Positions 21,671 to 38,520 of a stretch of DNA of 64,000 nucleotides are shown here, in pieces. Under the pieces are notes generated by a model. It did not search any database. It was not told the DNA's origin and worked only from the letters and a program-made list of their open reading frames with translations. Positions within the stretch are counted from its first letter, which is position 1. Every line of letters begins with the position of its first letter. The stretch is from a bacterium (lineage in GTDB: Bacteria; UBA8248; JACPRG01; G963555815), in the NCBI GenBank assembly GCA_965218795.1, contig OZ244653.1:4634472-4698471 (forward strand). Reading direction: 5' to 3'. The position numbers and the translations under genes are program-made.

Positions 21671-22816
21671 ATGAATTTTGATCTTACCGAAAAACTGCGG
21701 CTATTGCGCGAAATGGTGCGAGAGTTCGTTCGGCAGGATCTGCTCCCGCACGAAGAGTGGGTGGAGGAGCTTGACGACGTCCCTCCCGAACTTCTGAAAG
21801 AGCTTCGCGTCAAGGCCCGCGACCTGGGCCTTCTGGGCCTCACCATTCCCAAGGAATGCGGCGGCGCAGGAATGGGTTTTTTGGCCAACTGTGTTCTCAG
21901 AGAAGAGCTGGGCCGGGCGAGCCTGGCCATGTCCTATGCAGTCCGGGGTCCGGCTCCCATTTTGTCGATGGGCACGCCCGGGCAGATCGAGAAGTATCTC
22001 GCCCCATGCCTGCGGGCGGAAAAGCGGGACTGTTTCGCCCTGACCGAGCCCAACGCCGGCTCGGACGCTTCGGCCATTGAGACCAGCGCCGTGCGGGATG
22101 GAGAAGACTTCATCCTGAACGGCAATAAGATCTTCATCACCGACGGGATCAAGGCGGATTTCACGATTGTGTTCGCCGTGACGGACAAAGAGAAGCGGGC
22201 GCGCGGGGGCGTGACCGCGTTCTTGGTGGACAAAGGGACGCCGGGCTTTCAGGTGGGGCAAAAGTTCCAGAAGATGGGTTGGCGCGGGACGGATCTGTCC
22301 GAGCTGGTCTTTCAAAACTGCCGGGTCCCCGATACGCAGGTATTGGGTGAAATCGGTCAAGGGTTCCGCTTGGCGATGGAATGGATTGACGTCGGGCGCC
22401 TGGGCATCGCCGCGGCGGCCGTGGGAACAGCGGAGCGGTTGCTGGAAATGGCGAAAGGTTACGCAAGCGAAAGGGTGACCTTCGGCAAGCCTTTGGCGGA
22501 CCGCCAGGCCGTTCAGTGGATGATCGCGGATTCGGCCATGGAAATCCGGGCGGCCCGCCTCCTCACCTACCAGGCGGCGGCCGAGGGGGATCAGGGCCGC
22601 GAGACGCGGCAGGCGGCGGCGATGGCAAAGCTGTACGCGACGGAGATGGTGGGGCGCGTGGCGGACCGGGCGCTCCAGATCCACGGTGGGATGGGATACA
22701 TGAAAGATCTGCCGATTGAGCGCATGTATCGGGATGTCCGCTACAACCGCATCGGGGAGGGCACCTCCGAGATCCTTCGCCATCTCATTGCACGGGGGAT
22801 CCTGAAGGGGAAGTAA
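21671..22816 (+). CDS. Acyl-CoA dehydrogenase
   Basis: 381 aa. N-terminal acyl-CoA dehydrogenase domain, the middle ..FALTEPNAGSDA.. motif and the C-terminal ..QIHGGMGY.. region. Confidence 0.9.
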   Translation: MNFDLTEKLRLLREMVREFVRQDLLPHEEWVEELDDVPPELLKELRVKARDLGLLGLTIPKECGGAGMGFLANCVLREELGRASLAMSYAVRGPAPILSMGTPGQIEKYLAPCLRAEKRDCFALTEPNAGSDASAIETSAVRDGEDFILNGNKIFITDGIKADFTIVFAVTDKEKRARGGVTAFLVDKGTPGFQVGQKFQKMGWRGTDLSELVFQNCRVPDTQVLGEIGQGFRLAMEWIDVGRLGIAAAAVGTAERLLEMAKGYASERVTFGKPLADRQAVQWMIADSAMEIRAARLLTYQAAAEGDQGRETRQAAAMAKLYATEMVGRVADRALQIHGGMGYMKDLPIERMYRDVRYNRIGEGTSEILRHLIARGILKGK

Positions 22817-22825
22817 TCCAGTTGG

Positions 22826-22983
22826 AAGCGGCCCGGCGTGCCTGGCGTCGCTTCGGCAAGGGCAATCACCCTGCGGCGCTGAACGTTGGGGACTGCTTGG
22901 CCTATGCGCTCGCCGATGCGACGGGCTAGCCGCTGCTGTTCAAGGGCGAGGACTTCGCCCAAACCGATATCGGGCCGGCGTGA
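22826..22983 (+). pseudogene. VapC (PIN-domain toxin) C-terminal remnant with an in-frame TAG
   Basis: Translates as [51 protein letters not shown]. This is the conserved VapC C-terminus (G.H.A.LN.GDCF.YALA...PLLFKG.DF..TDI). No N-terminal part and no VapB are present. Confidence 0.6.
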
Positions 22984-23203
22984 TCGAGAAAACGGGCCGG
23001 AGAACGGAAATGACGATGACTGAGCGGGAATGGATGCCTCAGCGATCGCGAATCCACGTGGATGACCGCCGCATCATTTCGCTTGGGTCAGCGCATCATG
23101 CAATAGGCTGATTCAGACTGCCACCGCAGAGCTTGCCGACTTCCTTACGGCACATCTGCCCCCTCTCGGCGGGGATTGGTGGAAGAAGCACGTTGAAGAT
23201 CGC

Positions 23204-26200
23204 TTGAGTTTCCAGCAACAGCGTACGGTGCGGGAGCGCGAGCTCACGACGCTGGAGCAACTGGACTTTGCCGCCCTGCTGCGAGTTCTTGACCAGAACT
23301 GGCACGAGCTTTCTCAGGTGCTCAGTCTGCCTCGCGAAGGACGCACATGGGTCAAGGAGCTGCAAACGGTACGTAACAAGTGGGCGCATCTATCGGCCCA
23401 GACCATGGAGGCGAGTGAAGTCTATCGTGATGCCGATACCCTCGGCCGTCTCCTCGATATGCTGGGCGCTGCTCCGGAATCCGCCGCAGCGGTTGAGGCC
23501 GCGAAGACGGATGCTCTTGCAAGTATGGCGACCGCCCGCGGCGTGATGGCCGGTTCTTCGGAGCCTGCCGAGGGGACAGGCGAACCAGCCGTTGAGGAGA
23601 CAGCGCAGGGTGGCGGATCCGGATCGTCGGGACCTCCTGAGACAATGTTCCAGGTCGGTAGCTTGGTCGCGCTGCGATCCGATCCGGCGATTGTCATGCC
23701 GGTCATCGAGGTCGTGCCGAGTGGGGCCGAATGTCGCTACCGTGTATTTCAGGACACCAGGAAGGTTACCTACTACGAGAGCCAGCTACGACATCCCGAG
23801 CAGACCGAGGAAGCGCAGCCCCGACCGAGCGCGGCGGACCTGCGCGCGTACCTGACGAGCCTGCATCTGCTCTCGCCCTCGACGGCCAACCTTCATTCGC
23901 TGCGCTCGGGGCGTATTCAGTTCGTGCCTTACCAGTACCGCCCCGTGCTGAAGTTGATCCGGGCGGATCGGCCGCGTCTGCTCATCGCCGATGAGGTCGG
24001 CGTCGGCAAGACGATCGAGGCCGGCCTGATCATCAAGGAGCTGCGGGCGCGCATGGACATTTCCTCCGTGCTCGTCATCTGCCCGAAGGCATTGGTCTCC
24101 GAGCGCAAGTGGTTCGTGGAGATGAAGCGCTTCGACGAACACTTCACGGCGCTCGATGGTCCGATGCTGCGCCACAGTCTGCGGGAAACGCATCTGGAAG
24201 GCGAGTGGCCGGACCAGTACGCCAAGGCGATCGTCCCGTTCTCGCTGTTCGATTCGGACCTGCTCTTCGGGAAGGATAGGGAGGGTCGCCTAAAGAGCGA
24301 GGGGCTACTCGCCCTCGACCCGCCGCCGAAGTTCGACCTCGTGATCGTCGACGAAGCGCACCATATCCGCAATCCGGAAACGTACCTCCACCAGGGCGTG
24401 CGCTACTTTTGCGACAACGCGCAGGCCGCCATCTTTCTTACCGCTACGCCGGTCCAGTTGGGCAGCGAGGATCTCTTTACGCTGCTCAACGCACTCCGGC
24501 CGGACCTGGTGATCGACCGTCCGAGCTTCGAACAGATGGCCGCGCCCAATCGGTCCATCAACATGGCCGTGCAGCATTGCCGTTCCGCCAAGGAGGACTG
24601 GCAAGGGCAAGCGCGGGCGTGCCTGGATGAGGCCGCGCAAACGCAATGGGGCAGCCTGTTTGTGCGGGAGTCACCGGCTTTTCAGAACATCTACGACCGG
24701 CTGGGAGGAGAGCAGGTCGATGACGCGGATCGCATCGGCATCGTCCGGTCTCTGGAGGAGCTCTATACCTTCAGCCCGATGATCAACCGGACGCGCCGCA
24801 GGGATATCGGCGAGTTCACGACTCGAAGGCCGGAGACGCTGACGACCGAGTTCACGCCCGAGCAGCAGCGCCTGCACGACGATCTGATCGATGTCGTGGC
24901 CCGTATCCTGGCGTTTGCGCACGGACAGCAGAACGTCAAGTTCATGATGACCACGATTCGCCGCCAGGCGGCGAGCTGTCTGTATGGACTGGCGCCCCTG
25001 CTGCGCAGCATCCTCGCCGGCAAGCTGGATGGCCTTGAGACGATGGAAGCGGGCGATGTCGAGGGCGAAGCCGATCTCGGCTTCCTCGCCGAGGCGCGGA
25101 GCGATATCGAGGCGCTTCTGGAGAGAGCCGACAGCCTCGATCCGCGGGACCCGAAGGTTGATGCTTTTGTCCAGGTTCTGCGCGACAAGAGCCGAATGGC
25201 CAACAACAAGGCCCTGGTGTTCAGCACCTTCCGGCACACGCTTGCGTATATCGCAAGGCACACGGAAGACGCGGGATTGCGCTACGGGCTTGTGCATGGT
25301 GACGTGGCGGACGAGGAGCGGGCGGACTTGCGCCGCCGGTTCGCGCTGCCGAAGGAAGACCCGGACGCGCTGGATGTATTGCTCTCCTCGGAGGTCGGCG
25401 GCGAAGGGCTCGATTTTCAGTTCTGCGACCTGTTGATCAACTACGATCTGCCCTGGAACCCGATGCGCGTCGAGCAGCGCATCGGGCGCATCGACCGCTA
25501 CGGTCAACAGAGCGAGGCCGTTGCCGTCGTCAATCTGGTTACGCCTGGCACGGTGGATGCCGATATCTACGAACGCTGCCTGTTGCGCATCGGCGTGTTC
25601 CAGCACGCGGTCGGCGGCAGCGAGGAGATTCTTGGCGAGATAACCCGTGAAATCCATGATGTCGCGGAGAGCTTCACGCTTACGGCCGAGGAACGCGCGC
25701 AGCGCTTACAGCAGCTCGGCGACAACGGGATTCGGCAAATTCAGGAAGAGCAGGCGCTTGAGGAAAAACAGGCCGAGCTATTCGGGTTGACGGTTCCGAA
25801 ACAATCCTGGCGTCAGGAGATCGAGGCCGCCGAGAGTTTCTGGCTGTCGCCAAGCGCCTTGCAGCGCTGCGTCTCGACCTATCTCTCCGGGCTGATGGAA
25901 ACCGGGGGGGAGTTTTTTCTCGGCGAGAAGCCGCTCAAGACACTGAGGTTGAATCAGGGGGCCCGGGCCAAGCTGCTTGAGGACTTCAAGCGTCAGCCCC
26001 GTTCGACCGACCCGGTGGCCCGGCAATGGGAAAAGTGGCTCAAGGGCACCGGTCCGATGCTGTCGGTCACGTTCGATCAGGAAACCACCGCGGCCGTCCC
26101 CGACGCCGTTCACCTGAACGGCCTTCACCCTCTGGTGCGCCAAGCGGCCCGGTTCCAGGAACGTTCCGAGGTTGCCCGCGTCAGCCTGACCGCATCGAGC

Positions 26201-26698
26201 GAGAGTCTGCCGGCAGGCGAGTACCCGTTCGCGCTTTACCGCTGGCGCAAGGTCGGGGTGCGAACCGACGAAGCGCTGCTCGCGATCAGTACCGAGCCGG
26301 CAATGGACGACGCCATCATGTCATTGCTGGAGGAGGCCGGCGACGCGCGCGCTGAAATACGGGATGCCGATGAAGCCCTGGATGCGCTCGATCATCGGCA
26401 CCATGACGAATGGAGCGTCGCGCGAGCGAACCACGTGGCGGAGAACCGGGAGTTGGTCCAGCATCGCCTCCAAAGCCTGAAGGTCAGCCATCAGGCCCGA
26501 TGCAGGCTGCTTGAGGACCAGGTTCAACGAGCGACCGATGACAGGATTCGCCGCATGAAGGAGTCCGAGCTGGCGAGAGCCGGATATGACTGCGAGCGGA
26601 GGGTTGCGGAATTGGAGGAAGCGGCGAACAGCGCGGACATTCACGCTACACAGGTTGTGTTTGGGATGCTCACCGTGACCATGAGCGACATGAGATGA
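23204..26698 (+). CDS. Large SNF2-family (SF2) helicase with N-terminal Swt1-like HEPN-type domain
   Basis: 1164 aa. The N-terminal roughly 110 aa carry an R-x4-H motif (VRNKWAHLSAQ) in a helical context, followed by an Ala/Gly/Glu-rich linker. The SNF2 ATPase core has Walker A ADEVGVGKTIEAG, DEAH box DEAHHIRN and LTATPVQ. The Helicase_C region includes ...LLSSEVGGEGLDFQ...NPMRVEQRIGRIDRYGQ. The stop overlaps the next start (ATGA). Confidence 0.8.
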   Translation: MSFQQQRTVRERELTTLEQLDFAALLRVLDQNWHELSQVLSLPREGRTWVKELQTVRNKWAHLSAQTMEASEVYRDADTLGRLLDMLGAAPESAAAVEAAKTDALASMATARGVMAGSSEPAEGTGEPAVEETAQGGGSGSSGPPETMFQVGSLVALRSDPAIVMPVIEVVPSGAECRYRVFQDTRKVTYYESQLRHPEQTEEAQPRPSAADLRAYLTSLHLLSPSTANLHSLRSGRIQFVPYQYRPVLKLIRADRPRLLIADEVGVGKTIEAGLIIKELRARMDISSVLVICPKALVSERKWFVEMKRFDEHFTALDGPMLRHSLRETHLEGEWPDQYAKAIVPFSLFDSDLLFGKDREGRLKSEGLLALDPPPKFDLVIVDEAHHIRNPETYLHQGVRYFCDNAQAAIFLTATPVQLGSEDLFTLLNALRPDLVIDRPSFEQMAAPNRSINMAVQHCRSAKEDWQGQARACLDEAAQTQWGSLFVRESPAFQNIYDRLGGEQVDDADRIGIVRSLEELYTFSPMINRTRRRDIGEFTTRRPETLTTEFTPEQQRLHDDLIDVVARILAFAHGQQNVKFMMTTIRRQAASCLYGLAPLLRSILAGKLDGLETMEAGDVEGEADLGFLAEARSDIEALLERADSLDPRDPKVDAFVQVLRDKSRMANNKALVFSTFRHTLAYIARHTEDAGLRYGLVHGDVADEERADLRRRFALPKEDPDALDVLLSSEVGGEGLDFQFCDLLINYDLPWNPMRVEQRIGRIDRYGQQSEAVAVVNLVTPGTVDADIYERCLLRIGVFQHAVGGSEEILGEITREIHDVAESFTLTAEERAQRLQQLGDNGIRQIQEEQALEEKQAELFGLTVPKQSWRQEIEAAESFWLSPSALQRCVSTYLSGLMETGGEFFLGEKPLKTLRLNQGARAKLLEDFKRQPRSTDPVARQWEKWLKGTGPMLSVTFDQETTAAVPDAVHLNGLHPLVRQAARFQERSEVARVSLTASSESLPAGEYPFALYRWRKVGVRTDEALLAISTEPAMDDAIMSLLEEAGDARAEIRDADEALDALDHRHHDEWSVARANHVAENRELVQHRLQSLKVSHQARCRLLEDQVQRATDDRIRRMKESELARAGYDCERRVAELEEAANSADIHATQVVFGMLTVTMSDMR

Positions 26699-28939
26699 GC
26701 GTCATTGAAGAAATCCGTCGAAGGAGAGAAAAGCTTCTCGATGCCTTGAAGACGAATCCTGAGATTCAGATTCGCAAGGTGGTCGAGGACATATACCCCG
26801 ATCGAGTACATTTCATATACGAGCTTCTCCAGAACGCCGAGGATACGGGCGCGTCCGAGGTCAGATTCGATCTCTCCGAAAAGAAGCTTGTGTTCGAACA
26901 CGATGGGCGGTCCTTTGATAAAGCGGACATCGAAGCCATTACGGGTATAGGCACCGGAACCAAGAAGGACGATGGCGACAAGATCGGCCGTTTCGGCATC
27001 GGATTCAAGGCGGTCTTTGCCTATACGGAGACGCCGCGCATCTGGTCGCCGACGTTCAGTTTCGAAATCTCGGACTTGGTGTTGCCGAACGAAATTGAAT
27101 CAGTTTCTTCACTTGGTGGAAAGACGCGGTTCGAGTTCCCGTTCGACTCCCCGAAGAAGCCGGCGTCGGATGCATTTCCAGAAATTCGGGATGGACTCGA
27201 AGGAATATCGGAAACCACGCTGTTGTTCCTCTCCCATATCGAATCGATTCACTGGCAAGTAGATGGCGGTTCGGAAGGACGCTTGTTGCGAATCTCGCAC
27301 CCCGATCATCACGTTGAGATACTGAGGGAGAGAGATGGCAAGGCGACGAAAAGTTCGCACTTCCTCCGATTTACGCAACCCGTCGAGGGACTGGAACTGC
27401 AACACGTCGCCATCGCGTTCGCGCTCGAAGCGTTACCGGCCGCAAGCAGATTCGACGCGGCCAAGCCCTTGGCGAAACAGTTCCGAATCGCACCGGTCGT
27501 GCCGGGGCGCGTCGCGGTTTACTTTACCGCCGAGAAGGAGACGTCGGGACTGCGTTTCCATCTCCATGCGCCCTTCGTGCCCGAACTCAGCCGCGCCAGC
27601 ATCAAGGACACGCCGGCGAACGAACCGCTGTTTCAGCAGTTGGCGGAGCTTGCGGCGCGTTCCCTGTTTGCGATCCGCGATCTCGGTTTTCTGAACACCG
27701 ATTTTCTCTCGGTGCTGCCGAACCCGAATGACGTTCTCCCCGACAGATACGAATGCATACGCGATGCCATCGTCGATGAGATGAATGAGCAACCGCTGAC
27801 GCCCACCCATGCGAAGACTCATGCGCCCGCCACGCAACTGCTACAGGCGAGAGCGTCTCTGAAGACCCTCTTGGCCAAGGAAGATATCGAGATTCTCGTC
27901 GACTTCGAGGAGACGCCGCTTGCCTGGGCGATTGGCGCAACTCAGAAGAACAGCGACATTGACCGCTTTCTCTCTGGCTTGGCTATCAGGGATTGGGACA
28001 TTAAACAGTTCGTGGAGAGGTTGGTAGAAGGGTTAAGCAGTAAGCCGAGATTTTCTCATGACGGCACAAAATTTCTTACCGAGCCTGATAAGACGTTGCT
28101 TCAGTGGTTGCGGTCGAAATCCGATGATTGGCACCAAACACTGTACGCGCTTCTCAATGGGAAAGAATCAGAGGGAGCTGCGTCCCGACTGAAGTATTCC
28201 TACATCGTTAGTCTCTCTACCGGCGATTATATAGTTGGCAACGAATGCTACTTTCTTACGGAGGACGTTCAAGAGGACACAATGCTACCGAGGGTAGCGA
28301 TCGGTACTTACACTTCGGGAAGGAACAGAAAGGAGCAGATACAGGCTAAAGAATTTCTTGAATCCATCGGCGTTCGTGAGGTAGGCGAGCGTGAACAAGT
28401 CGAGGCCATTCTCAAGCAGCGATACTCGAAAGAAGCCGAAATACCTGACAAGAAAACGCATAAGAACGATCTGAGACGCTTCATTTCGTTGGTGGAGAAC
28501 GATCCAAAGGCGACTTGTCTCTTTAAGGATTACTTTATATTTGAGCTGGCTGACGACCAATGGAGACAGCCTGCTCAGGCACGTTCTGCAATAACCCCTT
28601 CGGTAACACCAGTTGCACAATCCTGCCGCGTATCGCAACCGGGCGCGACGATGCCCGGGAGACCGAACTGGCGGGAGGCAGCCTCGAGGAACTGGACCGC
28701 GAGCAATTGCCGCCCTGCGTGGACGAACATGCCACCATCATGGCGCCGTTCGCGTTGCCGATGGTCAAGAACCATCCCTACGCGAAATCGGCCGAACAGA
28801 CGCACGGTCATTTCGCCCCCACCCCTTACACGATCCAGCCCTATTCAGCGGCGGCCATTCCGTTCCACTGGATGCTGAAAGAGCAGGCCGAGGGCAACGA
28901 GGAGTTCGGCGTTCCGAGCAGGGCCGAGGATCTCAAGCT
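26695..28939 (+). pseudogene. Sacsin-like GHKL (HATPase_c) ATPase, frame break near 28555 and 3' end cut by IS1380
   Basis: N-terminal ...VHFIYELLQNAEDTGASEVRFDLSEKKLVFEHDGRSFDKADIEAITGIGTGTKK...GRFGIGFKAVF is the sacsin/bacterial GHKL signature. From about 28555 the annotated frame turns Arg/Pro/Ser-rich, while the adjacent frame stays protein-like (...HFAPTPYTIQPYSAAAIPFHWMLKEQAEGNEEFGVPSRAEDLKL) up to the IS boundary at 28940. Confidence 0.65.
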
Positions 28940-30645
28940 GGGCTATCCTGGATATCTCACAAAGAAAGAGAGCCAAGCCGGTTTTTTTCGGGTAAACTCT
29001 TTTTGATCAACGGGTTGCCCGAAGAAAGGAGACCGACTTGACTCGCACACAGAGTATCGCAGAACAGATGGAATTCCAAGGGTTGGGTTCTCGGCGTGTG
29101 ATCGCCACTTCCAACGGCGGGGCGATCACCTCTGATGCGGGCGGTCTTTTGCTACGCGACACCGAGGGGCGGGTGAAGCTGATCGCAGGCTTCGCGGCCT
29201 GTTTTGAGGACGGTCGGGACGCGAGGCGGGTGGAACATGAGTTGGGGGCGTTGTTGCGGCAGCGGGTGTACGCGCTGGCGCTTGGCTATGAGGACGTCAA
29301 CGACCACGAGCGGCTTCGCTTTGACCCGATGCTCCAGATCCTCTCGGGCAAGCTGGAGGCCACGCGGCGCAAGGGGGGTCCGGCCCTTGCGGGCAAGAGC
29401 ACGCTGAACCGTTTGGAGCGTCTTGCGGGCGATGGCGATGAGCGCTACCACAAGATCGCCTACCGAGGCGAGGCGATCGACCGGCTGTTGGTGGACAACT
29501 TCCTTCGGTCGCAGAGGCGGGCGCCGGGTCGGATCGTTTTGGACATCGACGCCACCGACGACCCGGTGCACGGCTGTCAGAAGGGGCGTTTCTTCCACGG
29601 CTATCACGGTCATTACTGCCACCTTCCGCTTTACATCTTCTGCGGGGATTTCCTTTTGTGCGCTCGGCTTCGGCCCTCCAATATCGACGCCTCCTCGGGG
29701 GTGGTGGAAGAGTTGGAGCGGATCGTTGCCCAGATTCGGGCACGCTGGCCGCAGGTGTCGATCCTGCTTCGGGCGGATTCGGACTTCTCGCGCGAGTGGA
29801 TCATGGCCTGGTGCGAGGCGCAGGGGGTGGATTACGTGTTCGGCCTGGCCAAGACCTCCCGGCTGCAGGAAGCGGTGAAGGACGAGCTGGCCGAAGCGAA
29901 GGCGCGTCATCAGAGCACGGGGAAGGGGGCGCGGTTATTCCGGTCGTTTCCTCACCGGACGCTTACATCCTGGAGCCGGGTGCGGCGGGTGGTCGCCAAG
30001 GCCGAGCACCTGGCCAAGGGCGCCAATCCGCGCTTCATCGTGACTTCGCTGGACGAGGAGGCGATCGACGCGAAGCCTCTGTACGAGCGCATCTACTGCG
30101 CCCGGGGGACGATGGAGAACCGGCTCAAGGAGCAGCAGCTCGACCTGTACGCGGACCGGACGTCGTGCACGCGGATGCGCTCCAATCAGTTGCGGCTCTA
30201 CCTGTCGGCGGTGGCCTATGAACTGATGCATGCGTTGCGTCGGCTAGGCCTTCGGGGGACGGCGTTTGCAAAGGCAACGTGTGGAACGGTGCGGACGCGG
30301 CTGCTGAAGATCGGGGCGCAGGTTCGGGTGAGCGTGCGGCGGGTGCACGTGGCCCTTGCGACGGGTTATCCGTACATGAATGTGTTCTTCCACGCCTGGC
30401 GGAACCTGCGCGCGGGGCCGGAGGGAGAGCCCGCCGTCTAAGACAGATTGCAAAATGAACGCGCAGGGAGTCGAGGCAAACGTGCGTGCGGAGCCGAGCC
30501 AAATCGGCCAAAAAGCCCCTCTCACGGGTCAACTCCAACCACCCACCGGCCCTGGCATCCACCGCAAAAGCGACAGACAGGAAAAAACACTCCAATTCAC
30601 ACCCGATAATCCATCCGCCGAGTGGGTGGTGAGAAATGCGGGCTA
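28940..30645 (+). mobile_element. IS1380-family insertion sequence, copy 1 (about 1.7 kb, one transposase gene)
   Basis: A roughly 1.7-kb block identical to 33440-35144. Boundaries come from where the two copies diverge from their flanks. The ends are imperfect inverted repeats (...ggatatctcac / gtgagaaatgc...). No target-site duplication is evident. Confidence 0.8.
29038..30441 (+). CDS. IS1380-family DDE transposase
   Basis: 467 aa with a TTG start. Size, the single-ORF layout and motifs (..ILLRADSDF.., ..YCARGTMENRLKE..) are typical of IS1380-family transposases. Confidence 0.85.
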   Translation: MTRTQSIAEQMEFQGLGSRRVIATSNGGAITSDAGGLLLRDTEGRVKLIAGFAACFEDGRDARRVEHELGALLRQRVYALALGYEDVNDHERLRFDPMLQILSGKLEATRRKGGPALAGKSTLNRLERLAGDGDERYHKIAYRGEAIDRLLVDNFLRSQRRAPGRIVLDIDATDDPVHGCQKGRFFHGYHGHYCHLPLYIFCGDFLLCARLRPSNIDASSGVVEELERIVAQIRARWPQVSILLRADSDFSREWIMAWCEAQGVDYVFGLAKTSRLQEAVKDELAEAKARHQSTGKGARLFRSFPHRTLTSWSRVRRVVAKAEHLAKGANPRFIVTSLDEEAIDAKPLYERIYCARGTMENRLKEQQLDLYADRTSCTRMRSNQLRLYLSAVAYELMHALRRLGLRGTAFAKATCGTVRTRLLKIGAQVRVSVRRVHVALATGYPYMNVFFHAWRNLRAGPEGEPAV

Positions 30646-31166
30646 GGTCCACGTCCTTCATTGCCAAGTCCGAAGCAGATTCATGCCCACCTAACCGCAC
30701 CTTCACACGCCTTTCGAATGCATTTGAGCATCCCTCACTTCTGGCCGTGTAGGGGAGAACACCCACCGACGTATGCGGGCGTTCTCCCATCGTGAATGAT
30801 GGCGTATAGCGTAAATGCTTTTTCTGTGTAGATTTACCAACAGCCGAAAGGCTGATTTTCCCAACGGCCATAAGCCTCCATCTCTGCGCTTCGTTCTATT
30901 TGTGGCCGATGAGAGTTATTACTTCCAGTTATTTGGATCATTGCATTTTTCGTTACTAATTCTTTTTTTTATTAACGCCAGTTCATATGATTGCCCTGCA
31001 CAAGCACCTATGATCGGTTAAATCCCTATCATCCAGAGAGCGGTGACCCTCGCCGAGGACATTGCAGCGGTGGAGACGCGAATCCAGACGCCGACGGGCT
31101 TTCACTGCGGCTTCTTCGCCGTTCGCACACCATGATATACTAACCGATCTTATACGTTGGCAGGGA

Positions 31167-32834
31167 CTACTTCTTTTTGGTAGCAGGGGCCTCTTTCGCA
31201 GGGCGGGGTACCAGGCCTTGTGCCAGATTGCTCTGTCCGAGGATTGCCGCAGCACCGGCGAGTCCGCTTCCCGCGCCTTGCACCAGGACATTGGGAACCT
31301 TCACAAGTGCTGGATTCTTTACGGCAGCAGCCAGCATTTTTTCGAGCAATGCCAGTTGCAATACGCGATCCTGTCCCAGAACTTCGGCCTGGGCCCTCTG
31401 GCCGGCGGCGATTTCCAGGAGGCGAAGCTTTTCCCCCTCGCCCTGCAGCTTGGCAGCCCGTTTTCGCTGTTCGGCGACCTTCACCGCAATCTCAGCCGCA
31501 ACCAGTTGCGGTTGTCTGTCCGCCCGCGCTCTCGTATTCTCGGTCTTGATCCGCTCCTGTTGCGCTTCTTGCTCTCTTTGATAGGTTCTCCTCAAAAGCT
31601 CGGCAAGCTGTTCACGTCGCCGGGCGACCAACAATTCAGGAGGAATGATGGGCTCGCCAAAACGGACTTCTCGAATAGAAAGACCTGCCTTCTGGCCTTC
31701 CGGCTGAATTCTTTTCTCCACCCGTGACTCAATTTCCGCTCGTTGCTCTTGAAGGTCCAGAACCTTGCGTCCCTTTGCGCCAACGACATTTCTTATGACG
31801 CTTCGGATCGCCGGCGTCAGAACTTTATCCTCGACCTCTTTAATCCCGCCAACCGAGGCGACGACGAAGGGAGCGTCTTCGGGTGTTACCTGGCCCAAAA
31901 CCCGGAGCTCAAGCGGGACATCCCATCCTTCAATACGGGCCATGATGGCATCCACCGCATTAGGGGGAACAGGAATGTCCCGGCGTCTTTCTCTCTGAGT
32001 GATTTTCCCCTCTTGATCCACGGATAGGTCGATATAGCGCCGCAGATATCCACCTTTGTATGTCCATGCATGGATGAGGGTGCTGATGATTGTGACTTCA
32101 TAGGCACGATGGTTTAAATAATACTTTCCGGGAAAGAGCGGCTCGCTCCAAACGCCGATACAGTTTTTCGAAACAAGCGGAACCGAAATGAAGGCTTCCC
32201 GTCCAGTCGTCATGCGCTTGCAATCTTTTATCGCCTGGACGTTTGACTTGACCACGCCGACTTCGCCGGCCCGGATGCTTGTCGCATTACCCTGCTTGAC
32301 CTCAAACAAATACTGATTGACGCGGTATCGTCCGGGTTTCAACACCGTCAGTTGAGGACCCTTCTGCCCTCCTTTCTTCAGGAAGTACGCCGCATCCTGA
32401 ACCATCTTTACGAACTCGCGCTCCGGCCATCTATCGGAGAGAAACTGTTCTTTTCTCAGTGAACGGCCATCTCGGGCGGTAACAAATCCGTATTTCCCCT
32501 CGGGGATCTCCAAGATGGACTTCTGCTCAACGTCGTGAATGACGTTGAGCAAAGGTCGGAAATGGAACCCCGGAGGCAAAATCTCCGCTTGGGGGCCCTT
32601 CTCTCCGTTTGCGGCGATGATCCTCCCTGGAGGCAGAGACCTTCCAAAATAAATTTTCTTGAGGTGGCCGACCTCATCCGCACCGATATGCACGTATGAG
32701 GTGGAGAATACGAGAAACACGGCGATTATTCCTAACACAGCTCTCAGGGCCATCCTTGAGGCTGCATCAGGAATTCTTCGAGGAACAAATACTGCGGCCA
32801 CAAGAAGCACGATTGCAAAGAGCACCCACGTCAT
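31167..32834 (-). CDS. Flotillin / SPFH (band-7) family membrane protein (YqiK-like)
   Basis: 555 aa. N-terminal TM segment, SPFH domain, then a long Glu/Arg/Ala/Gln-rich coiled-coil tail (..EQRKRAAKLQGEGEKLRLLEIAAGQRAQAE..). GC content is clearly lower than the surroundings. Confidence 0.8.
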   Translation of the reverse strand: MTWVLFAIVLLVAAVFVPRRIPDAASRMALRAVLGIIAVFLVFSTSYVHIGADEVGHLKKIYFGRSLPPGRIIAANGEKGPQAEILPPGFHFRPLLNVIHDVEQKSILEIPEGKYGFVTARDGRSLRKEQFLSDRWPEREFVKMVQDAAYFLKKGGQKGPQLTVLKPGRYRVNQYLFEVKQGNATSIRAGEVGVVKSNVQAIKDCKRMTTGREAFISVPLVSKNCIGVWSEPLFPGKYYLNHRAYEVTIISTLIHAWTYKGGYLRRYIDLSVDQEGKITQRERRRDIPVPPNAVDAIMARIEGWDVPLELRVLGQVTPEDAPFVVASVGGIKEVEDKVLTPAIRSVIRNVVGAKGRKVLDLQEQRAEIESRVEKRIQPEGQKAGLSIREVRFGEPIIPPELLVARRREQLAELLRRTYQREQEAQQERIKTENTRARADRQPQLVAAEIAVKVAEQRKRAAKLQGEGEKLRLLEIAAGQRAQAEVLGQDRVLQLALLEKMLAAAVKNPALVKVPNVLVQGAGSGLAGAAAILGQSNLAQGLVPRPAKEAPATKKK

Positions 32835-32847
32835 CGCACCCCTCCTT

Positions 32848-33069
32848 CTAGAACGGGTTGTCGGTTCTTTGATACCAAGCGGGAATTTCCCATTTCAACT
32901 TGGACCGAATCCCCTCTGGTCTCGTTTGGAGCTTGAACTTAAATTCACCATTCCGCAGCACCCGGATTGAAACCACGTCTCGCAATTCTGATAGCAGCAT
33001 GATCTTCCTTATAATTATTGGCTGTAGATCTGAAAAGCAGCGAAATAAAAATTGGAAGGATGCGACCAT
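32848..33069 (-). CDS. Small protein immediately upstream of flotillin (possible NfeD-like OB-fold partner)
   Basis: 73 aa. Its stop is 14 bp before the flotillin start, in a low-GC region. Assignment rests on position only. Confidence 0.3.
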   Translation of the reverse strand: MVASFQFLFRCFSDLQPIIIRKIMLLSELRDVVSIRVLRNGEFKFKLQTRPEGIRSKLKWEIPAWYQRTDNPF

Positions 33070-33439
33070 CTTCCATTATGACGTAACCTTAGTCCTCGCT
33101 GGCATTAACGCACGTCTCCTTTCTTTTTAGATATCAGAAGTGCCATCTTGTTAATCGATCCCAAGCTCTCTCGATTGATTTCATGATCCTCAATCGTTAT
33201 TACCGGAATTTCCCATATCAAATCCGGACAGGCCTGTACCGACCCCTCGTTGCTGTTTAACTCAATTAGACCCCTCTCTATCCGGACCTGTCAATCCCAT
33301 TTCAGGTGCCTGAAACCTTAATCGGAGCGTTATCCACCATTGAAAATCATGCCACCCCTCCGGGTAGGCGAGCCTTCCCAGCAGGTCATCTGGAAGGGAC
33401 AGAACATTCACCATTTTGTCCTCGAGTGGACTGCGCCAA

Positions 33440-35144
33440 GGCTATCCTGGATATCTCACAAAGAAAGAGAGCCAAGCCGGTTTTTTTCGGGTAAACTCTT
33501 TTTGATCAACGGGTTGCCCGAAGAAAGGAGACCGACTTGACTCGCACACAGAGTATCGCAGAACAGATGGAATTCCAAGGGTTGGGTTCTCGGCGTGTGA
33601 TCGCCACTTCCAACGGCGGGGCGATCACCTCTGATGCGGGCGGTCTTTTGCTACGCGACACCGAGGGGCGGGTGAAGCTGATCGCAGGCTTCGCGGCCTG
33701 TTTTGAGGACGGTCGGGACGCGAGGCGGGTGGAACATGAGTTGGGGGCGTTGTTGCGGCAGCGGGTGTACGCGCTGGCGCTTGGCTATGAGGACGTCAAC
33801 GACCACGAGCGGCTTCGCTTTGACCCGATGCTCCAGATCCTCTCGGGCAAGCTGGAGGCCACGCGGCGCAAGGGGGGTCCGGCCCTTGCGGGCAAGAGCA
33901 CGCTGAACCGTTTGGAGCGTCTTGCGGGCGATGGCGATGAGCGCTACCACAAGATCGCCTACCGAGGCGAGGCGATCGACCGGCTGTTGGTGGACAACTT
34001 CCTTCGGTCGCAGAGGCGGGCGCCGGGTCGGATCGTTTTGGACATCGACGCCACCGACGACCCGGTGCACGGCTGTCAGAAGGGGCGTTTCTTCCACGGC
34101 TATCACGGTCATTACTGCCACCTTCCGCTTTACATCTTCTGCGGGGATTTCCTTTTGTGCGCTCGGCTTCGGCCCTCCAATATCGACGCCTCCTCGGGGG
34201 TGGTGGAAGAGTTGGAGCGGATCGTTGCCCAGATTCGGGCACGCTGGCCGCAGGTGTCGATCCTGCTTCGGGCGGATTCGGACTTCTCGCGCGAGTGGAT
34301 CATGGCCTGGTGCGAGGCGCAGGGGGTGGATTACGTGTTCGGCCTGGCCAAGACCTCCCGGCTGCAGGAAGCGGTGAAGGACGAGCTGGCCGAAGCGAAG
34401 GCGCGTCATCAGAGCACGGGGAAGGGGGCGCGGTTATTCCGGTCGTTTCCTCACCGGACGCTTACATCCTGGAGCCGGGTGCGGCGGGTGGTCGCCAAGG
34501 CCGAGCACCTGGCCAAGGGCGCCAATCCGCGCTTCATCGTGACTTCGCTGGACGAGGAGGCGATCGACGCGAAGCCTCTGTACGAGCGCATCTACTGCGC
34601 CCGGGGGACGATGGAGAACCGGCTCAAGGAGCAGCAGCTCGACCTGTACGCGGACCGGACGTCGTGCACGCGGATGCGCTCCAATCAGTTGCGGCTCTAC
34701 CTGTCGGCGGTGGCCTATGAACTGATGCATGCGTTGCGTCGGCTAGGCCTTCGGGGGACGGCGTTTGCAAAGGCAACGTGTGGAACGGTGCGGACGCGGC
34801 TGCTGAAGATCGGGGCGCAGGTTCGGGTGAGCGTGCGGCGGGTGCACGTGGCCCTTGCGACGGGTTATCCGTACATGAATGTGTTCTTCCACGCCTGGCG
34901 GAACCTGCGCGCGGGGCCGGAGGGAGAGCCCGCCGTCTAAGACAGATTGCAAAATGAACGCGCAGGGAGTCGAGGCAAACGTGCGTGCGGAGCCGAGCCA
35001 AATCGGCCAAAAAGCCCCTCTCACGGGTCAACTCCAACCACCCACCGGCCCTGGCATCCACCGCAAAAGCGACAGACAGGAAAAAACACTCCAATTCACA
35101 CCCGATAATCCATCCGCCGAGTGGGTGGTGAGAAATGCGGGCTA
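33440..35144 (+). mobile_element. IS1380-family insertion sequence, copy 2 (identical to copy 1, same orientation)
   Basis: Sequence identity with 28940-30645 begins and ends at these coordinates. The right end runs straight into the truncated helicase gene. Confidence 0.8.
33537..34940 (+). CDS. IS1380-family DDE transposase (copy 2)
   Basis: Protein identical to the 29038-30441 product. Confidence 0.85.
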   Translation: MTRTQSIAEQMEFQGLGSRRVIATSNGGAITSDAGGLLLRDTEGRVKLIAGFAACFEDGRDARRVEHELGALLRQRVYALALGYEDVNDHERLRFDPMLQILSGKLEATRRKGGPALAGKSTLNRLERLAGDGDERYHKIAYRGEAIDRLLVDNFLRSQRRAPGRIVLDIDATDDPVHGCQKGRFFHGYHGHYCHLPLYIFCGDFLLCARLRPSNIDASSGVVEELERIVAQIRARWPQVSILLRADSDFSREWIMAWCEAQGVDYVFGLAKTSRLQEAVKDELAEAKARHQSTGKGARLFRSFPHRTLTSWSRVRRVVAKAEHLAKGANPRFIVTSLDEEAIDAKPLYERIYCARGTMENRLKEQQLDLYADRTSCTRMRSNQLRLYLSAVAYELMHALRRLGLRGTAFAKATCGTVRTRLLKIGAQVRVSVRRVHVALATGYPYMNVFFHAWRNLRAGPEGEPAV

Positions 35145-38100
35145 TACGGCCGAGCGCGAGCCGGACCTCGGTTTCACCACCAGTTGGGTACAGGAAGGCA
35201 CGAACCAACGCGTGCTGCTGGACACGTTCTTCAGCGCCGCCAGGCCGGATCAATCGCTCGTCTTTTTTTACGCGAAACGCACACCGATGGCGGAAGACGT
35301 CCGCCGCGTGATTGTTGGCGTCGGGCGTGTGAAAACCATTGGCGCGGCGACAGCGTATCGCGACGTCGTCGGCACCCGGCCGAATAGCAAGATCAATGGC
35401 TACCTGTGGGAACGCAATATCGAGCACTCGATACGCCCTGATGGTACGGACGGATTTCTGCTGCCTTATCGCGAACTGATCGCACTCGCCGAAGACGATG
35501 CCAGTCTCGATCTCGGTGCCTGCACCGCTTTTGCCCCGGACGAGTACTTTGAACAGTACTCCTATGGCAGCGAGCTGCTGCCGCAGGATGGCGCCATTGC
35601 CTCATTGCTGGCGCTGGAGAAGGCAATTAAGTCCATGCGTAGCCTGCTCGAGGCACCCTGGGCGGAGTACCTTCAGTGGATAGACCGAGAGCTTAACCGG
35701 CTATGGCAGGTGCGCGGCGCCTTCCCCGGCCTCGGCGCGACCCTGCATGCGTTCGGCCTGCCACATGGGAATCTGTTGGTGTGGCACCTGGTGGGCGACA
35801 GCGAGAAAGCCATCGACCCGTGGCCTGTATTGACTGCGGCACTCAAAAAGCCGTCGTCCCTGCCGGAATACCTCCGCGACGGCATTGGCAAAACCCAGCA
35901 ACAGAAGTGGGAAAAACTTCCGGACTCGCGCCGCGCGTTGCCGGACTCGCGCCGCGCGTTGCTGATGCTGTTGGCGCGGTTCAACCTGACCAATGTTCAG
36001 GCGCTGCGGTGGTATCAGGAGACCGAGAGGGACAGCGCAGGCATCACGCTCGACGACAAGGATATCCTGGCCAACCCGTACACGATCTATGAAGCTGATC
36101 GTCTTCAAGCGGACCCCATTGCATTCGCGGTGATTGACCGCGGCATGTTCCCCCCGGAGCCGCTGCGCAAGGATTTCCCGACCCCCGAGCCCAGCAGGGT
36201 GCATGAGGCGATAGACCCGCGACGCGTGCGCTCGGCAATGATCCAGACGCTGGAAGACGCGGCCGGTGAGGGGCACACACTGATACCGGCCTCCTGGCTG
36301 ATCCAGCGCGTGCGTGCGCGGCCCATGAAACCAGAGTGTCCCGTAGATGCAGACACGCTTGCTGTCGTGGGAGACAGCCTGGAACCATTGATTACGACAG
36401 TCAATCTGGAAACAGAGGACGATGCGTTTCAGCTCGATCGCTATGTCGAAACGTCGAAGCTGATCGGCGCTGCGATTACGAAGCGCAGAAACGGCAAGGC
36501 AAACGGCGGTGAATCCGATTGGGCCGCGTTGGTTAATGAGGCGATTGATGAGGGGAAAAAGAAATCCGCACTTACCGCTGACGACAAAAAGGCACGTCAG
36601 GAAAAGGCTGCTGCGCTGAAAGAATTGTACCGGGGCCGGGTTTGCTTATTGATGGGATCTGCCGGTACCGGTAAGAGTACATTGCTGAAAGCCCTATGCC
36701 GCATCGATGCAGTGTTTAAAGGCGGCATCCTGTTGCTCGCCCCTACCGGCAAAGCGCGCGTCAGACTCGAACAAGCCAGCGGCATGGCCGGCCAGGGGAA
36801 AACCGTCGCGCAATTCCTGAACGGATTGCAGCGTTACGATGGCAATACCGGACGTTATTACGTCAATACCGACGCTCCTCGCTCATCGGCGCATAAGACC
36901 GTCGTGATCGACGAATGCTCGATGCTGACCGAAGAGCAGCTCGCGGCTCTACTTGACGCCGTCAAGGGTGTTGAGCGTTTGATCCTGGTTGGCGATCCGA
37001 AGCAGTTGCCGCCGACCGGAGCCGGACGCCCCTATGTGGACATCGCGCAATGCCTGAAGCCCGACAACATCGACAGTTTGTTCCCGCGCGTCGCTTCCGG
37101 ATATGCCGAACTGACAGTAACCATGCGGCAGGAGACCACAGGCGATGCGGCACGTGTGGATGTGCTTCTGGCCAATGCATTCAGTGGGCGCGCGCTGGAT
37201 GCTGGCGCCGACGAGGTGTGGCACGCGGTTACGGCTGGGGAAACCCGATTTGTGAAGTTGGTACGCTGGAATCAGCCGGACCAATTGCAAAAGCTACTGC
37301 TAGCTGAATTGGCGGCAGTACTCGGATTGAAATCCGCCGATGATGAAATCGGCTTTGAGGAATCCATCGGTGGCACGGCTTCCGAGTACAACGGCCAGAC
37401 CAATATCTTCTTCAACACGCGCTACAAGGCGCTCTCTGGGGCTGCGGAAAAGGCCGAGCAATGGCAAATCCTAACCCCAGTCCGCCAGAACCAGACAGGT
37501 GTACTGGCGCTGAACCGCGCCATTCAACAGCAGTTTCGTAAACGTTTCCTTGATCTCGCGGTACGTTCGGGGTCCCAGAAAAGGATCATCACGAGTCCTG
37601 CCGGGCCGGAAAGCATCATTTACGGCGACAAAGTGATCAATATCGTCAATAGCAGTCGCCGTGGTGTCTACCCTGACAAAGACGACCGTTATGTTGCCAA
37701 CGGCGATATCGGGGTGGTGACCGGGCACCGGCGCACGAAGAAGAAAGACTGGAAGCCGGTGGAGGTTGAAGTTGAACTGGCCTCGCAACCGGGGTTTGTC
37801 TACAAGTACAAATCATGGGAATTCGACGCCCAGGAGAGTTCCCCGCCCCTGGAGTTGGCCTATGCGCTGACCATCCACAAGACGCAAGGCAGCGAATTCG
37901 GCACGACGTTTTTGGTGATTCCCAATCCCTGCCGGGTACTCAGCCGGGAAATGCTGTACACGGCATTAACGCGGCACATGGGAAGAGTCATCATTCTCCA
38001 TCAGGGTGATTTCCGCGAGCTGCAACGCTTCAGCCATGATGAGGCGTCGGAAGTCGCGCGACGCATGACGAACCTGTTCAGGCCGTCGCGACCTGTAGAA

Positions 38101-38520
38101 GTGCGAATCAGCAACCAGTCGGTGTTCCTTGACAGCAACCTGATTTATTGGACTGAGCGCGGTGAACTGGTGCGCTCCAAGTCTGAATGGATCATCGCCG
38201 ACAAGATGCATGCCGCCGGCATCGACTATCAATATGAACAAGCTTTGCTCCTGGCAGGCATTGAACGTTTCCCGGACTTCACCATCGTAGATGACGATAG
38301 TGGGAGCACCTGGTACTGGGAGCACAATGGCATGCTCAGCAACAAGGATTACCTCAAGCGTTGGGATCGCAAGCTGGCTGCCTACCGAGAGCAAGATATT
38401 CTGCGGTTAGAAGAAGGTGGCGGGAAGAACGGCACCTTGCTGGTCACAGAAGAGCAAGCAGGCACCGGGCTCGACGCCGGGCACATACAAAGCAATATCG
38501 ATGCGATTCTGGCGGGATAA
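35145..38520 (+). CDS. RecD-like SF1 helicase (AAA_30 / UvrD_C_2 type) with C-terminal endonuclease-like domain, 5'-truncated by the IS
   Basis: The annotated ORF (34879-38520) begins inside the IS right end and reads through in frame. After the junction: a beta-rich N-terminal region, Walker A LLMGSAGTGKSTLLKAL, Walker B VVIDECSML, RecD motif LILVGDPKQLPPTG, motif V/VI YALTIHKTQGSEFGTTFLVIP. The last roughly 150 aa (WIIADKMHAAGIDYQYEQ...PDFTIVDD...WYWEHNG) resemble a Vsr/PD-(D/E)xK-type nuclease fold. Confidence 0.75.
35920..35961. repeat. Perfect 21-bp tandem duplication inside the helicase gene (in-frame, LPDSRRA x2)
   Basis: ccggactcgcgccgcgcgttg repeated twice back to back. Confidence 0.8.

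Follow-up and report, generated by a model that had tools for sequence, protein, structure and literature searches.

The DNA examined here, referred to as the window, is a stretch of 64,000 nucleotides from a bacterium of the GTDB lineage UBA8248 (contig OZ244653.1 of GenBank assembly GCA_965218795.1), and the genes of interest lie at 23.2-38.5 kb within it. This part of the window is filled by long open reading frames (ORFs) of the plus strand, with the transposase ORFs duplicated. An earlier note, made from the sequence alone, had proposed a candidate defence module in which a HEPN-SNF2 helicase is coupled to a sacsin-type GHKL ATPase, with a RecD-like helicase-nuclease nearby. We found that the locus is the wreck of a three-gene cassette of this composition, carried as cargo beside conjugation genes, and that all three genes are broken. 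The lesions were called by reference to L006, the closest relative found, which lies on a metagenome-assembled genome contig of 1.8 Mb; a second source of comparison was L189, a separate ENA contig that is 99.7% identical to the window apart from scattered indels. The features of the cassette are as follows.

23098..26698, plus strand: HEPN(Swt1-type)-SNF2 gene, native ATG at 23098, frameshifted
23204-26698, plus strand: longest remaining ORF of this gene, TTG start, 1164 amino acids (aa)
23372..23389, plus strand: R-x4-H motif of the HEPN domain, RNKWAH (columns R57, N58, W60 and H62 invariant in alignment A1)
23927..25504, plus strand: SNF2 ATPase core with DEVGVGKT, DEAH and QRIGRIDRYGQ (Pfam; RapA match)
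26695..28578, plus strand: sacsin-type GHKL gene, codons 1-628 of ~1041; its ATGA lies across the SNF2 stop; the deletion removes the 3' 40% and, within it, an HNH-like zinc domain
26695-28878, plus strand: ORF of 727 aa
28576..28579, no strand: junction of a 1952-bp deletion, microhomology CAGG/AAGG (comparison with L006; same junction in L189)
28578..28945, plus strand: 5' fragment of the RecD-like gene (PDC-S68), ~codons 26-147; first 25 codons and promoter lost to the deletion
34879-38520, plus strand: last long ORF, carrying AAA_30, AAA_19 and UvrD_C_2 (Pfam)
35145..38520, plus strand: 3' part of the RecD-like gene, with the helicase core at ~36601-37977 and a PD-(D/E)xK-like C-terminal domain at ~38008-38517
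35920..35961, plus strand: exact 21-bp tandem duplication in the same gene, giving an in-frame 7-aa repeat LPDSRRA

The segment common to the window and L006 has its left edge at window 22828. Window positions 22828-28579 align with L006 9626-15382 at 93% identity, 28577-28946 with L006 17335-17704 at 99%, and 35139-36782 with L006 17698-19320 at 98%. The first lesion is a 1-nucleotide insertion in the SNF2 gene (C at 23101) just past the native ATG, which turns the reading into ATG CAA TAG; the gene starts with ATGAATAGT in L006 as against ATGCAATAGG at window 23098. No start codon was found between the native ATG and the TTG at 23204, and therefore any SNF2 product would be without the first 36 residues of the HEPN domain. 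This N-terminal stretch is present in the homologs, which are ~1197 aa long, and the Pfam HEPN match in the window starts at model position 40. The 1164-aa ORF had been taken for the whole gene; its domains stood, but its N-terminus falls short of the true start.

The second lesion is a deletion, the window being without L006 15383-17334 (1952 bp). Lost with it are the final 40% of the GHKL gene and the beginning of the helicase gene, and GHKL codon 628 is now joined to ~codon 26 of the latter. The GHKL sequence ends at 28578, and the Pro/Arg/Ser-rich tail that the 727-aa ORF carries from that position is the helicase 5' part read out of frame, because the deletion fused the two genes. A sacsin-type protein of at least 750 aa had been described here; the SACS domain is present (Pfam, E 9e-19), but only codons 1-628 are GHKL sequence. 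An early reading, in which a GHKL frameshift near 28560 was followed by a cut by an insertion sequence (IS), was ruled out, as the 'shifted' frame is the helicase 5' end brought in by the deletion.

The third lesion is a 6.2-kb IS-SPFH-IS block (28946-35144) that interrupts the helicase gene, and its empty site in L006 is CTGGGCTATACGG. When 28578-28945 is spliced to 35145-38520, one continuous open frame results, and this restored frame places the block inside the helicase gene. A composite transposon lying between genes or within the GHKL gene was thereby ruled out. The RecD-like helicase itself had been recognised correctly (AAA_30, AAA_19, UvrD_C_2 and PDC-S68), whereas its placement beyond an IS-bounded insertion gave way to a gene split by the IS block.

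The insertion, the deletion junction and the IS block were all seen again in L189, and therefore these lesions are not errors peculiar to the window. Since all three genes are disrupted, the window copy is almost certainly inactive, a pseudogenised relic, and the idea of a working module at this locus had to be abandoned. The alignments indicate that the ancestral gene order was HEPN-SNF2, GHKL and RecD-like, on one strand throughout. It was also noted that the L006 helicase gene has its own, different truncation at 19320, where the likeness to the window stops, followed by a minus-strand ORF of 441 aa at L006 19320-20690. Because this truncation differs from the window lesions, the cassette appears to decay independently in two lineages. 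A search of plasmids for near-identical DNA turned up no relative of the region.

The HEPN-SNF2 and GHKL pair across genomes

The ORF at 23204-26698 was found to contain HEPN_Swt1 (PF18731, E 6.7e-15), SNF2-rel_dom, ResIII and Helicase_C in Pfam, in agreement with the proposal that a Swt1-type HEPN region is joined to an SNF2 core. The proposed R-x4-H motif was likewise confirmed as RNKWAH, invariant in the aligned relatives, and RN[RK]WAH was retained in at least 100 of 110 loci; RNase activity of the SNF2-fused HEPN domain is predicted from fold and motif. The closest solved relative of the SNF2 motor is RapA (E 4e-39). The best PADLOC profile for the protein was DrmD (PDLC02623, E 4.3e-117, profile positions 6-963 of 1040), with weaker matches to BrxHI/HII, HmaA and DpdE. 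Thousands of SNF2 relatives share the HEPN+SNF2 architecture. The N-terminal module differs between loci, being HEPN in ~70%, a 175-aa domain in some and missing in others, and at a few loci a DUF2283 plus helix-turn-helix piece lies upstream, in frame with the SNF2 gene. The conserved domain of ~175 aa, seen in place of HEPN at L040, L095, L110 and L140 (MSGPS.L.LFGF.NPRE...WIQDG.G.G...IYAFQF), had no Pfam match.

In the GHKL protein, the N-box and G2-box residues are invariant, and intact partners are 1030-1056 aa long. An AlphaFold model of an intact partner (predicted local distance difference test, pLDDT, 82) gave fold matches over 230-250 residues to ParE, MutL, topoisomerase II, SMCHD1 and MORC, and these residues are read as a GHKL module with its transducer. 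For the middle region (~aa 330-900), neither a structural match nor a recognisable relative was found. At the C-terminus, the family profile matches the McrA HNH domain at E 3e-5, and the zinc-binding pattern CQxC...CP[NTV][HC] is nearly universal among the partners. The beta-beta-alpha-metal fold with zinc-binding CxxC pairs is present here, but the catalytic first His is not: the 'HH' of McrA (EVHHV) aligns with 'EAVEF' or 'EAVQC', and the next H and N are not invariant. As the catalytic His is replaced, we read this HNH-like domain as probably a DNA- or partner-binding zinc finger and not a nuclease.

The pair was surveyed with one genome per species, and the 80 best loci were examined. SNF2 relatives occurred in at least 389 species, and the 80 best loci came from Pseudomonadota, Planctomycetota, Verrucomicrobiota, Chloroflexota, Actinomycetota, Acidobacteriota, Gemmatimonadota and others. 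A SACS-type gene was found directly after the SNF2 gene in ~75 of 75 assessable genome loci, the sole exceptions being contig ends. In the reverse test, which started from the GHKL protein and counted metagenome loci with at least 3.7 kb of upstream DNA, the SNF2 gene lay directly upstream in 53 of 53 loci, down to 28-30% GHKL identity, and the HEPN region was present in 37 of them. Whether the two genes co-occur had been posed as a check, and it came out in favour. The SNF2/GHKL overlap is 4 bp in most loci; for the window, the claimed ATGA overlap with the GHKL start at 26695 follows from the coordinates. A profile-free exhaustive search returned 1385 clusters at 50% identity (E<=1e-30), and the best 150 of these were nearly all ~1020-1060 aa and matched over almost the whole length. 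These results point to an obligate, translationally coupled HEPN-SNF2 and GHKL pair that has spread horizontally across many phyla.

The immediate neighbours of the ~75 loci included no conserved methyltransferase or DrmA/B/C and no further conserved partner; PDC-S68 (S68), the family of the RecD-like gene, was the one neighbour that recurred. A methyltransferase as a conserved third component, which had been suggested as a possibility, was thus not found, and the view that the pair is distinct from a DISARM or BREX variant was supported by the same result. The neighbours were otherwise variable, with IS elements, integrases and other defence genes (GmrSD/HEC-05, DrmA/D, type III REase, KwaB and ZacA). 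At L003 16753-18549 (Sulfuricaulis limicola AP014879.1), a GmrSD_N / HEC-05-like gene lies 4 bp past the GHKL stop and is followed by a Schlafen/AlbA_2 gene; the former could be another accessory effector. Two IMG/VR contigs of 45-48 kb (L173 and L174) were the only viral-collection contigs with a full-length HEPN-SNF2 relative, at 52-58% identity.

The RecD-like gene as a neighbour of the pair

The RecD-like gene of the window corresponds to the PADLOC candidate PDC-S68 (PDLC05065, 1414 bits, profile positions 136-1218). The match is essentially full length once the upstream fragment is counted, and the ORF is not intact; the intact S68 neighbour in L005 spans profile positions 4-1219 of 1221. 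RecD2 and RecD were the best matches of the helicase both by sequence and by fold, and it is a RecD-like member of superfamily 1B (SF1B) with an SF1 core closest to RecD/RecD2. Within the C-terminal 150 residues, the motifs SKSE, PDF and WEH(L/N)G (WEHNG in the window) were invariant in 10 diverse S68 homologs. The C-terminus gave weak matches to the PADLOC PD-DEXK model (E 1.8e-4) and to T7 endonuclease I (E 1.3), and Pfam searches with the helicase's N- and C-terminal regions on their own found nothing, also for the N-terminal region that had been put forward as possibly modified-base-reader-like. From these motifs, a Vsr-like/PD-(D/E)xK nuclease at the S68 C-terminus is plausible. The LPDSRRA repeat of the window was missing from the consensus of 33 S68 homologs.

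Among the three nearest ORFs on each flank of the pair (387 in total), S68 was the sole neighbour to recur in more than 4 loci, and it was found at 8 of ~75 genome loci. Pfam and PADLOC scans of 136 immediate neighbours agreed that it is the only recurrent one, and a further 8 of 80 metagenome loci carried it. Where present, S68 was always immediately adjacent to the pair, following the GHKL gene at some loci and preceding the SNF2 gene at others, mostly co-oriented and with gaps of -14 to ~200 bp; the copies were 25-47% identical to the L005 reference copy.

Two loci with other arrangements were observed. L090 1-12846 (Janthinobacterium sp. 78, QENT01000001.1) has in a row a giant SACS protein of more than 2423 aa, a 102-aa ORF, a DrmD-like SNF2 protein (885 aa, PDLC02634 3e-239) and S68; a further SF1 helicase and a PIN_4 protein come next. 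The SACS/SNF2/S68 trio is seen here in a second architecture. L092 6286-16542, on the Ensifer adhaerens conjugative plasmid NZ_CP118613.1, is a tight four-gene operon of a 184-aa protein, a HEPN-less SNF2 protein, a SACS protein whose end is HNH-like, and a 1129-aa helicase. The last of these lies 11 bp downstream of SACS, combines PD-(D/E)xK, RNase H-like and SF1 helicase parts, and is annotated in RefSeq as a TM0106 family RecB-like nuclease.

It could be argued from such arrangements that the true unit has three genes, SNF2, GHKL and RecD-like, and that loci without the third are incomplete or use a substitute. The constant adjacency of the only recurrent neighbour fits this explanation, with gaps down to 0, 14 and -14 bp, both gene orders and copies that share just 25-47% mutual identity, as do the SF1 helicase-nucleases of L090 and L092 and the GmrSD-like gene 4 bp after SACS in L003. 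However, ~90% of loci are without S68, an S68 homolog of 93% identity stands alone in three unrelated contexts, other homologs sit in type III restriction-modification (R-M)-like loci, and PADLOC itself has S68 as a single-gene candidate. We therefore regard a three-gene unit as unlikely. The RecD-like gene had been put forward as a possible conserved third component, and what remains of this is a recurrent neighbour, present at just ~10% of loci and found alone elsewhere; S68 is best seen as a frequent, possibly cooperating add-on and not as a fixed component of the pair.

Flanks and the insertion-sequence block

The metabolic genes upstream of the cassette end at 22816, and downstream, from 38976, are genes for the TrwC relaxase, the TrwB coupling protein, TraG and TraN, so that the conjugative-element setting described earlier was confirmed. 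The two IS elements do bound an insertion, as had also been described. The remaining features of the region are listed below.

22825..22983, plus strand: putative vapC (PIN) C-terminal remnant with an in-frame stop, at the left edge of the segment common to the window and L006 (translation; weak match to the C-terminal end of the PIN model, E 0.14)
28941..30645, plus strand: IS copy 1, 1705 bp, transposase at 29038-30441 (DDE_Tnp_1_4); the first 5 bases, GGCTA, are identical to the target-site sequence
31167..32834, minus strand: SPFH/Band-7 gene between the IS copies (Pfam), 555 aa, membrane-anchored
33440..35144, plus strand: IS copy 2, 1705 bp, 100% identical to copy 1, transposase at 33537-34940
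29038-30441 and 33537-34940, plus strand: the identical pair of transposase ORFs

The VapC of L001, tried as a probe for the vapC remnant, showed no similarity and belongs to another PIN family. The DNA between the IS copies (30646-33439) was noted to have a lower G+C content (~53-57%). GGCTA occurs at all four IS junctions (28941-28945, 30641-30645, 33440-33444 and 35140-35144), and the empty L006 target has one GGCTA; the two internal copies are unexplained by a plain composite-transposon insertion with one 5-bp duplication. The pattern possibly reflects a target preference followed by IS-IS recombination, or the insertion of a circular unit of IS plus cargo (period 4499 bp). A sharp G+C step, from ~58-64% to ~70%, was seen at 38.6-39 kb, at the 3' end of the TrwC relaxase gene. 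From this step, the defence/IS segment and the upstream metabolic genes differ in composition from the F-type conjugation genes.

Candidate function and competing explanations

On balance, we lean towards reading the pair as a candidate anti-phage or anti-plasmid defence system with an RNase output, of which the window holds a dead copy. GHKL ATPases such as MutL, MORC and topoisomerase II dimerise upon ATP binding, and HEPN RNases work as dimers. The mechanism that we propose takes MutL/MORC clamps, SNF2 translocases and ATPase-gated HEPN nucleases as its models. In it, the SNF2 motor, which resembles RapA and DrmD, and the GHKL clamp, which resembles MutL and MORC, would jointly sense an invading or abnormal state of DNA, and the HNH-like zinc finger may aid DNA binding. 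ATP-driven GHKL dimerisation would then pair two HEPN domains, and the composite R-x4-H RNase would cut RNA, by which infection or plasmid establishment would be aborted. PDC-S68 may serve as a separate or facultative DNA-degrading arm in ~1/10 of loci, and in HEPN-less or S68-linked variants the helicase-nuclease may be the DNA-level effector.

Systems of this general kind have been predicted before. Iyer, Abhiman & Aravind (2008, PMC2292703) described operons of prokaryotes that encode GHKL proteins of the MORC/paraMORC type together with SWI2/SNF2 helicases and HNH nucleases, and predicted an R-M-like role. Those operons share with the pair the joint presence of a GHKL+S5 ATPase, an SFII/SNF2 helicase and an HNH-fold domain. 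Here, in contrast, the GHKL protein belongs to the sacsin clade and not to MORC, the HNH domain is fused and without the catalytic His, the helicase carries HEPN and there is no methylase. The 2013 census of HEPN domains (Anantharaman et al., PMC3710099) reported a Swt1/Abi2-family HEPN fused to SWI2/SNF2 (WQE_15321), as well as a Ymh-HEPN fused to paraMORC as an analogue of PrrC and RloC, in which an ATPase sensor is coupled to a HEPN anticodon nuclease. The coupling of an ATPase sensor to a HEPN RNase effector is common to these and to the pair, although in the pair the HEPN domain is on the SNF2 protein and the GHKL protein is separate and translationally coupled. A HEPN-SNF2 pairing with a sacsin-type GHKL protein is not described in that census.

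In PADLOC-DB v2.0.0 the pair is not represented as a system of its own, its best matches being the generic DrmD and the N-terminal half of TmtA. The RecD-like gene, however, matches a listed single-gene phage-defence candidate, from which the window copy differs in being 5'-truncated, IS-split and marked by a 7-aa duplication, and S68 is linked to the pair in a minority of loci. The claim of the earlier note that the combination is undescribed can thus be kept for the pair, but not for the helicase or for the general kind. Conflict systems built from GHKL and SNF2 proteins are known, and the specific HEPN-SNF2/sacsin-GHKL pair appears, as far as open-access text goes, to be a variant not described before.

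We hold it to be improbable that the pair is already named, as the Tiamat system (TmtA) to which a helicase has been added as an accessory. The GHKL protein is matched by each of the nine TmtA profiles of PADLOC, the best at E 1e-50 to 1e-54, and the likeness covers the N-terminal sacsin-type GHKL ATPase and the next ~500 residues. Intact GHKL partners, however, align to TmtA positions ~6-580 (up to ~820), which is only the N-terminal ~570-820 positions of profiles that are 1063-1782 positions long, and the protein is shorter than TmtA by 250-700 residues. At the C-terminus it has an McrA-like HNH zinc domain, as against the PD-(D/E)xK module reported for Tiamat (bioRxiv 10.1101/2024.10.26.620412). 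TmtA also acts as a single gene, whereas the GHKL protein here was never found without the SNF2 gene among the 53 metagenome loci. By length, C-terminus and obligate partner, the pair would not be Tiamat in the strict sense.

Slightly less probable still is a role outside immunity, in which the module would serve housekeeping or mobile-element maintenance, for instance by recycling RNA polymerase in the manner of RapA together with a chaperone-like sacsin ATPase, or would be an addiction module. Among solved structures the motor is nearest to RapA, sacsin is of the chaperone type (PMC3710099), and many neighbours are metabolic. Such a role sits poorly with the sporadic, phylum-crossing distribution and with the variable flanks, IS elements and integrases around the pair. 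It also fits less well with a HEPN toxin domain that has a conserved active site, with exchangeable N-terminal modules, or with the ready pseudogenisation seen in the window and in L006.

It is hardly credible that the SNF2 gene would be a DrmD left as an orphan and the locus a degraded DISARM (or BREX or Hma) system: the SNF2 core and C-terminal extension do match the DrmD profile of DISARM class 1 almost end to end, the BrxHI/HII, HmaA and DpdE profiles match more weakly and the window copy is visibly degraded, but the SNF2 protein here has an N-terminal HEPN domain, and its constant partner is the GHKL gene, joined by the 4-bp overlap. Of the DISARM core, DrmA, DrmB (DUF1998/MZB) and DrmC (PLD) were not found at 22.8-38.5 kb, and a DrmA match was seen at 1 locus among the 136 immediate neighbours, DrmA/DrmD matches being confined to a single locus of ~75. 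Neither DrmMI nor another methyltransferase was found in the window region, and no methyltransferase family was among the recurrent neighbours. Membership in DISARM, BREX or Hma was therefore ruled out, as the defining partners are missing.

Several observations weigh against the reading of the pair as a defence system with an RNase output. About 30% of SNF2 partners are without HEPN, and therefore HEPN cannot be the universal effector. The HNH-like domain has no canonical catalytic His, and its role is a guess. The pair is not accompanied by a methyltransferase or any other self/non-self mark. Many immediate neighbours are housekeeping or metabolic genes, and of the full-length matches only 2 were on viral contigs and 3 on plasmids. 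The likeness to RapA allows a transcription-linked, non-defence role. In the literature available as open-access text, no description or experimental test of the pair was found.

A broader proposal, put forward tentatively, is that the pair may be the core of a widespread immune system that senses foreign DNA without methylation marks and has exchangeable effectors, a fused HEPN RNase at most loci or a RecD-/RecB-like helicase-nuclease at others, and that it may foreshadow the ATPase-HEPN combination of animal sacsin. Eukaryotic sacsin differs in that its HEPN is of another HEPN family and is fused within one giant protein.

For the source genome, the locus is a fossil with three independent lesions and is not to be counted as active immunity of the conjugative element. 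The pair as such occurs in hundreds of species, from Pseudomonadota to Planctomycetota, Chloroflexota and Actinomycetota. Should it prove to be a defence system, the catalogue would gain a methylation-independent, helicase- and GHKL-driven one with an RNase output. This would also clarify how Tiamat-type GHKL proteins act and explain why loci that belong neither to DISARM nor to Tiamat are picked up by the PADLOC profiles for DrmD and TmtA. [quoted passage not shown]

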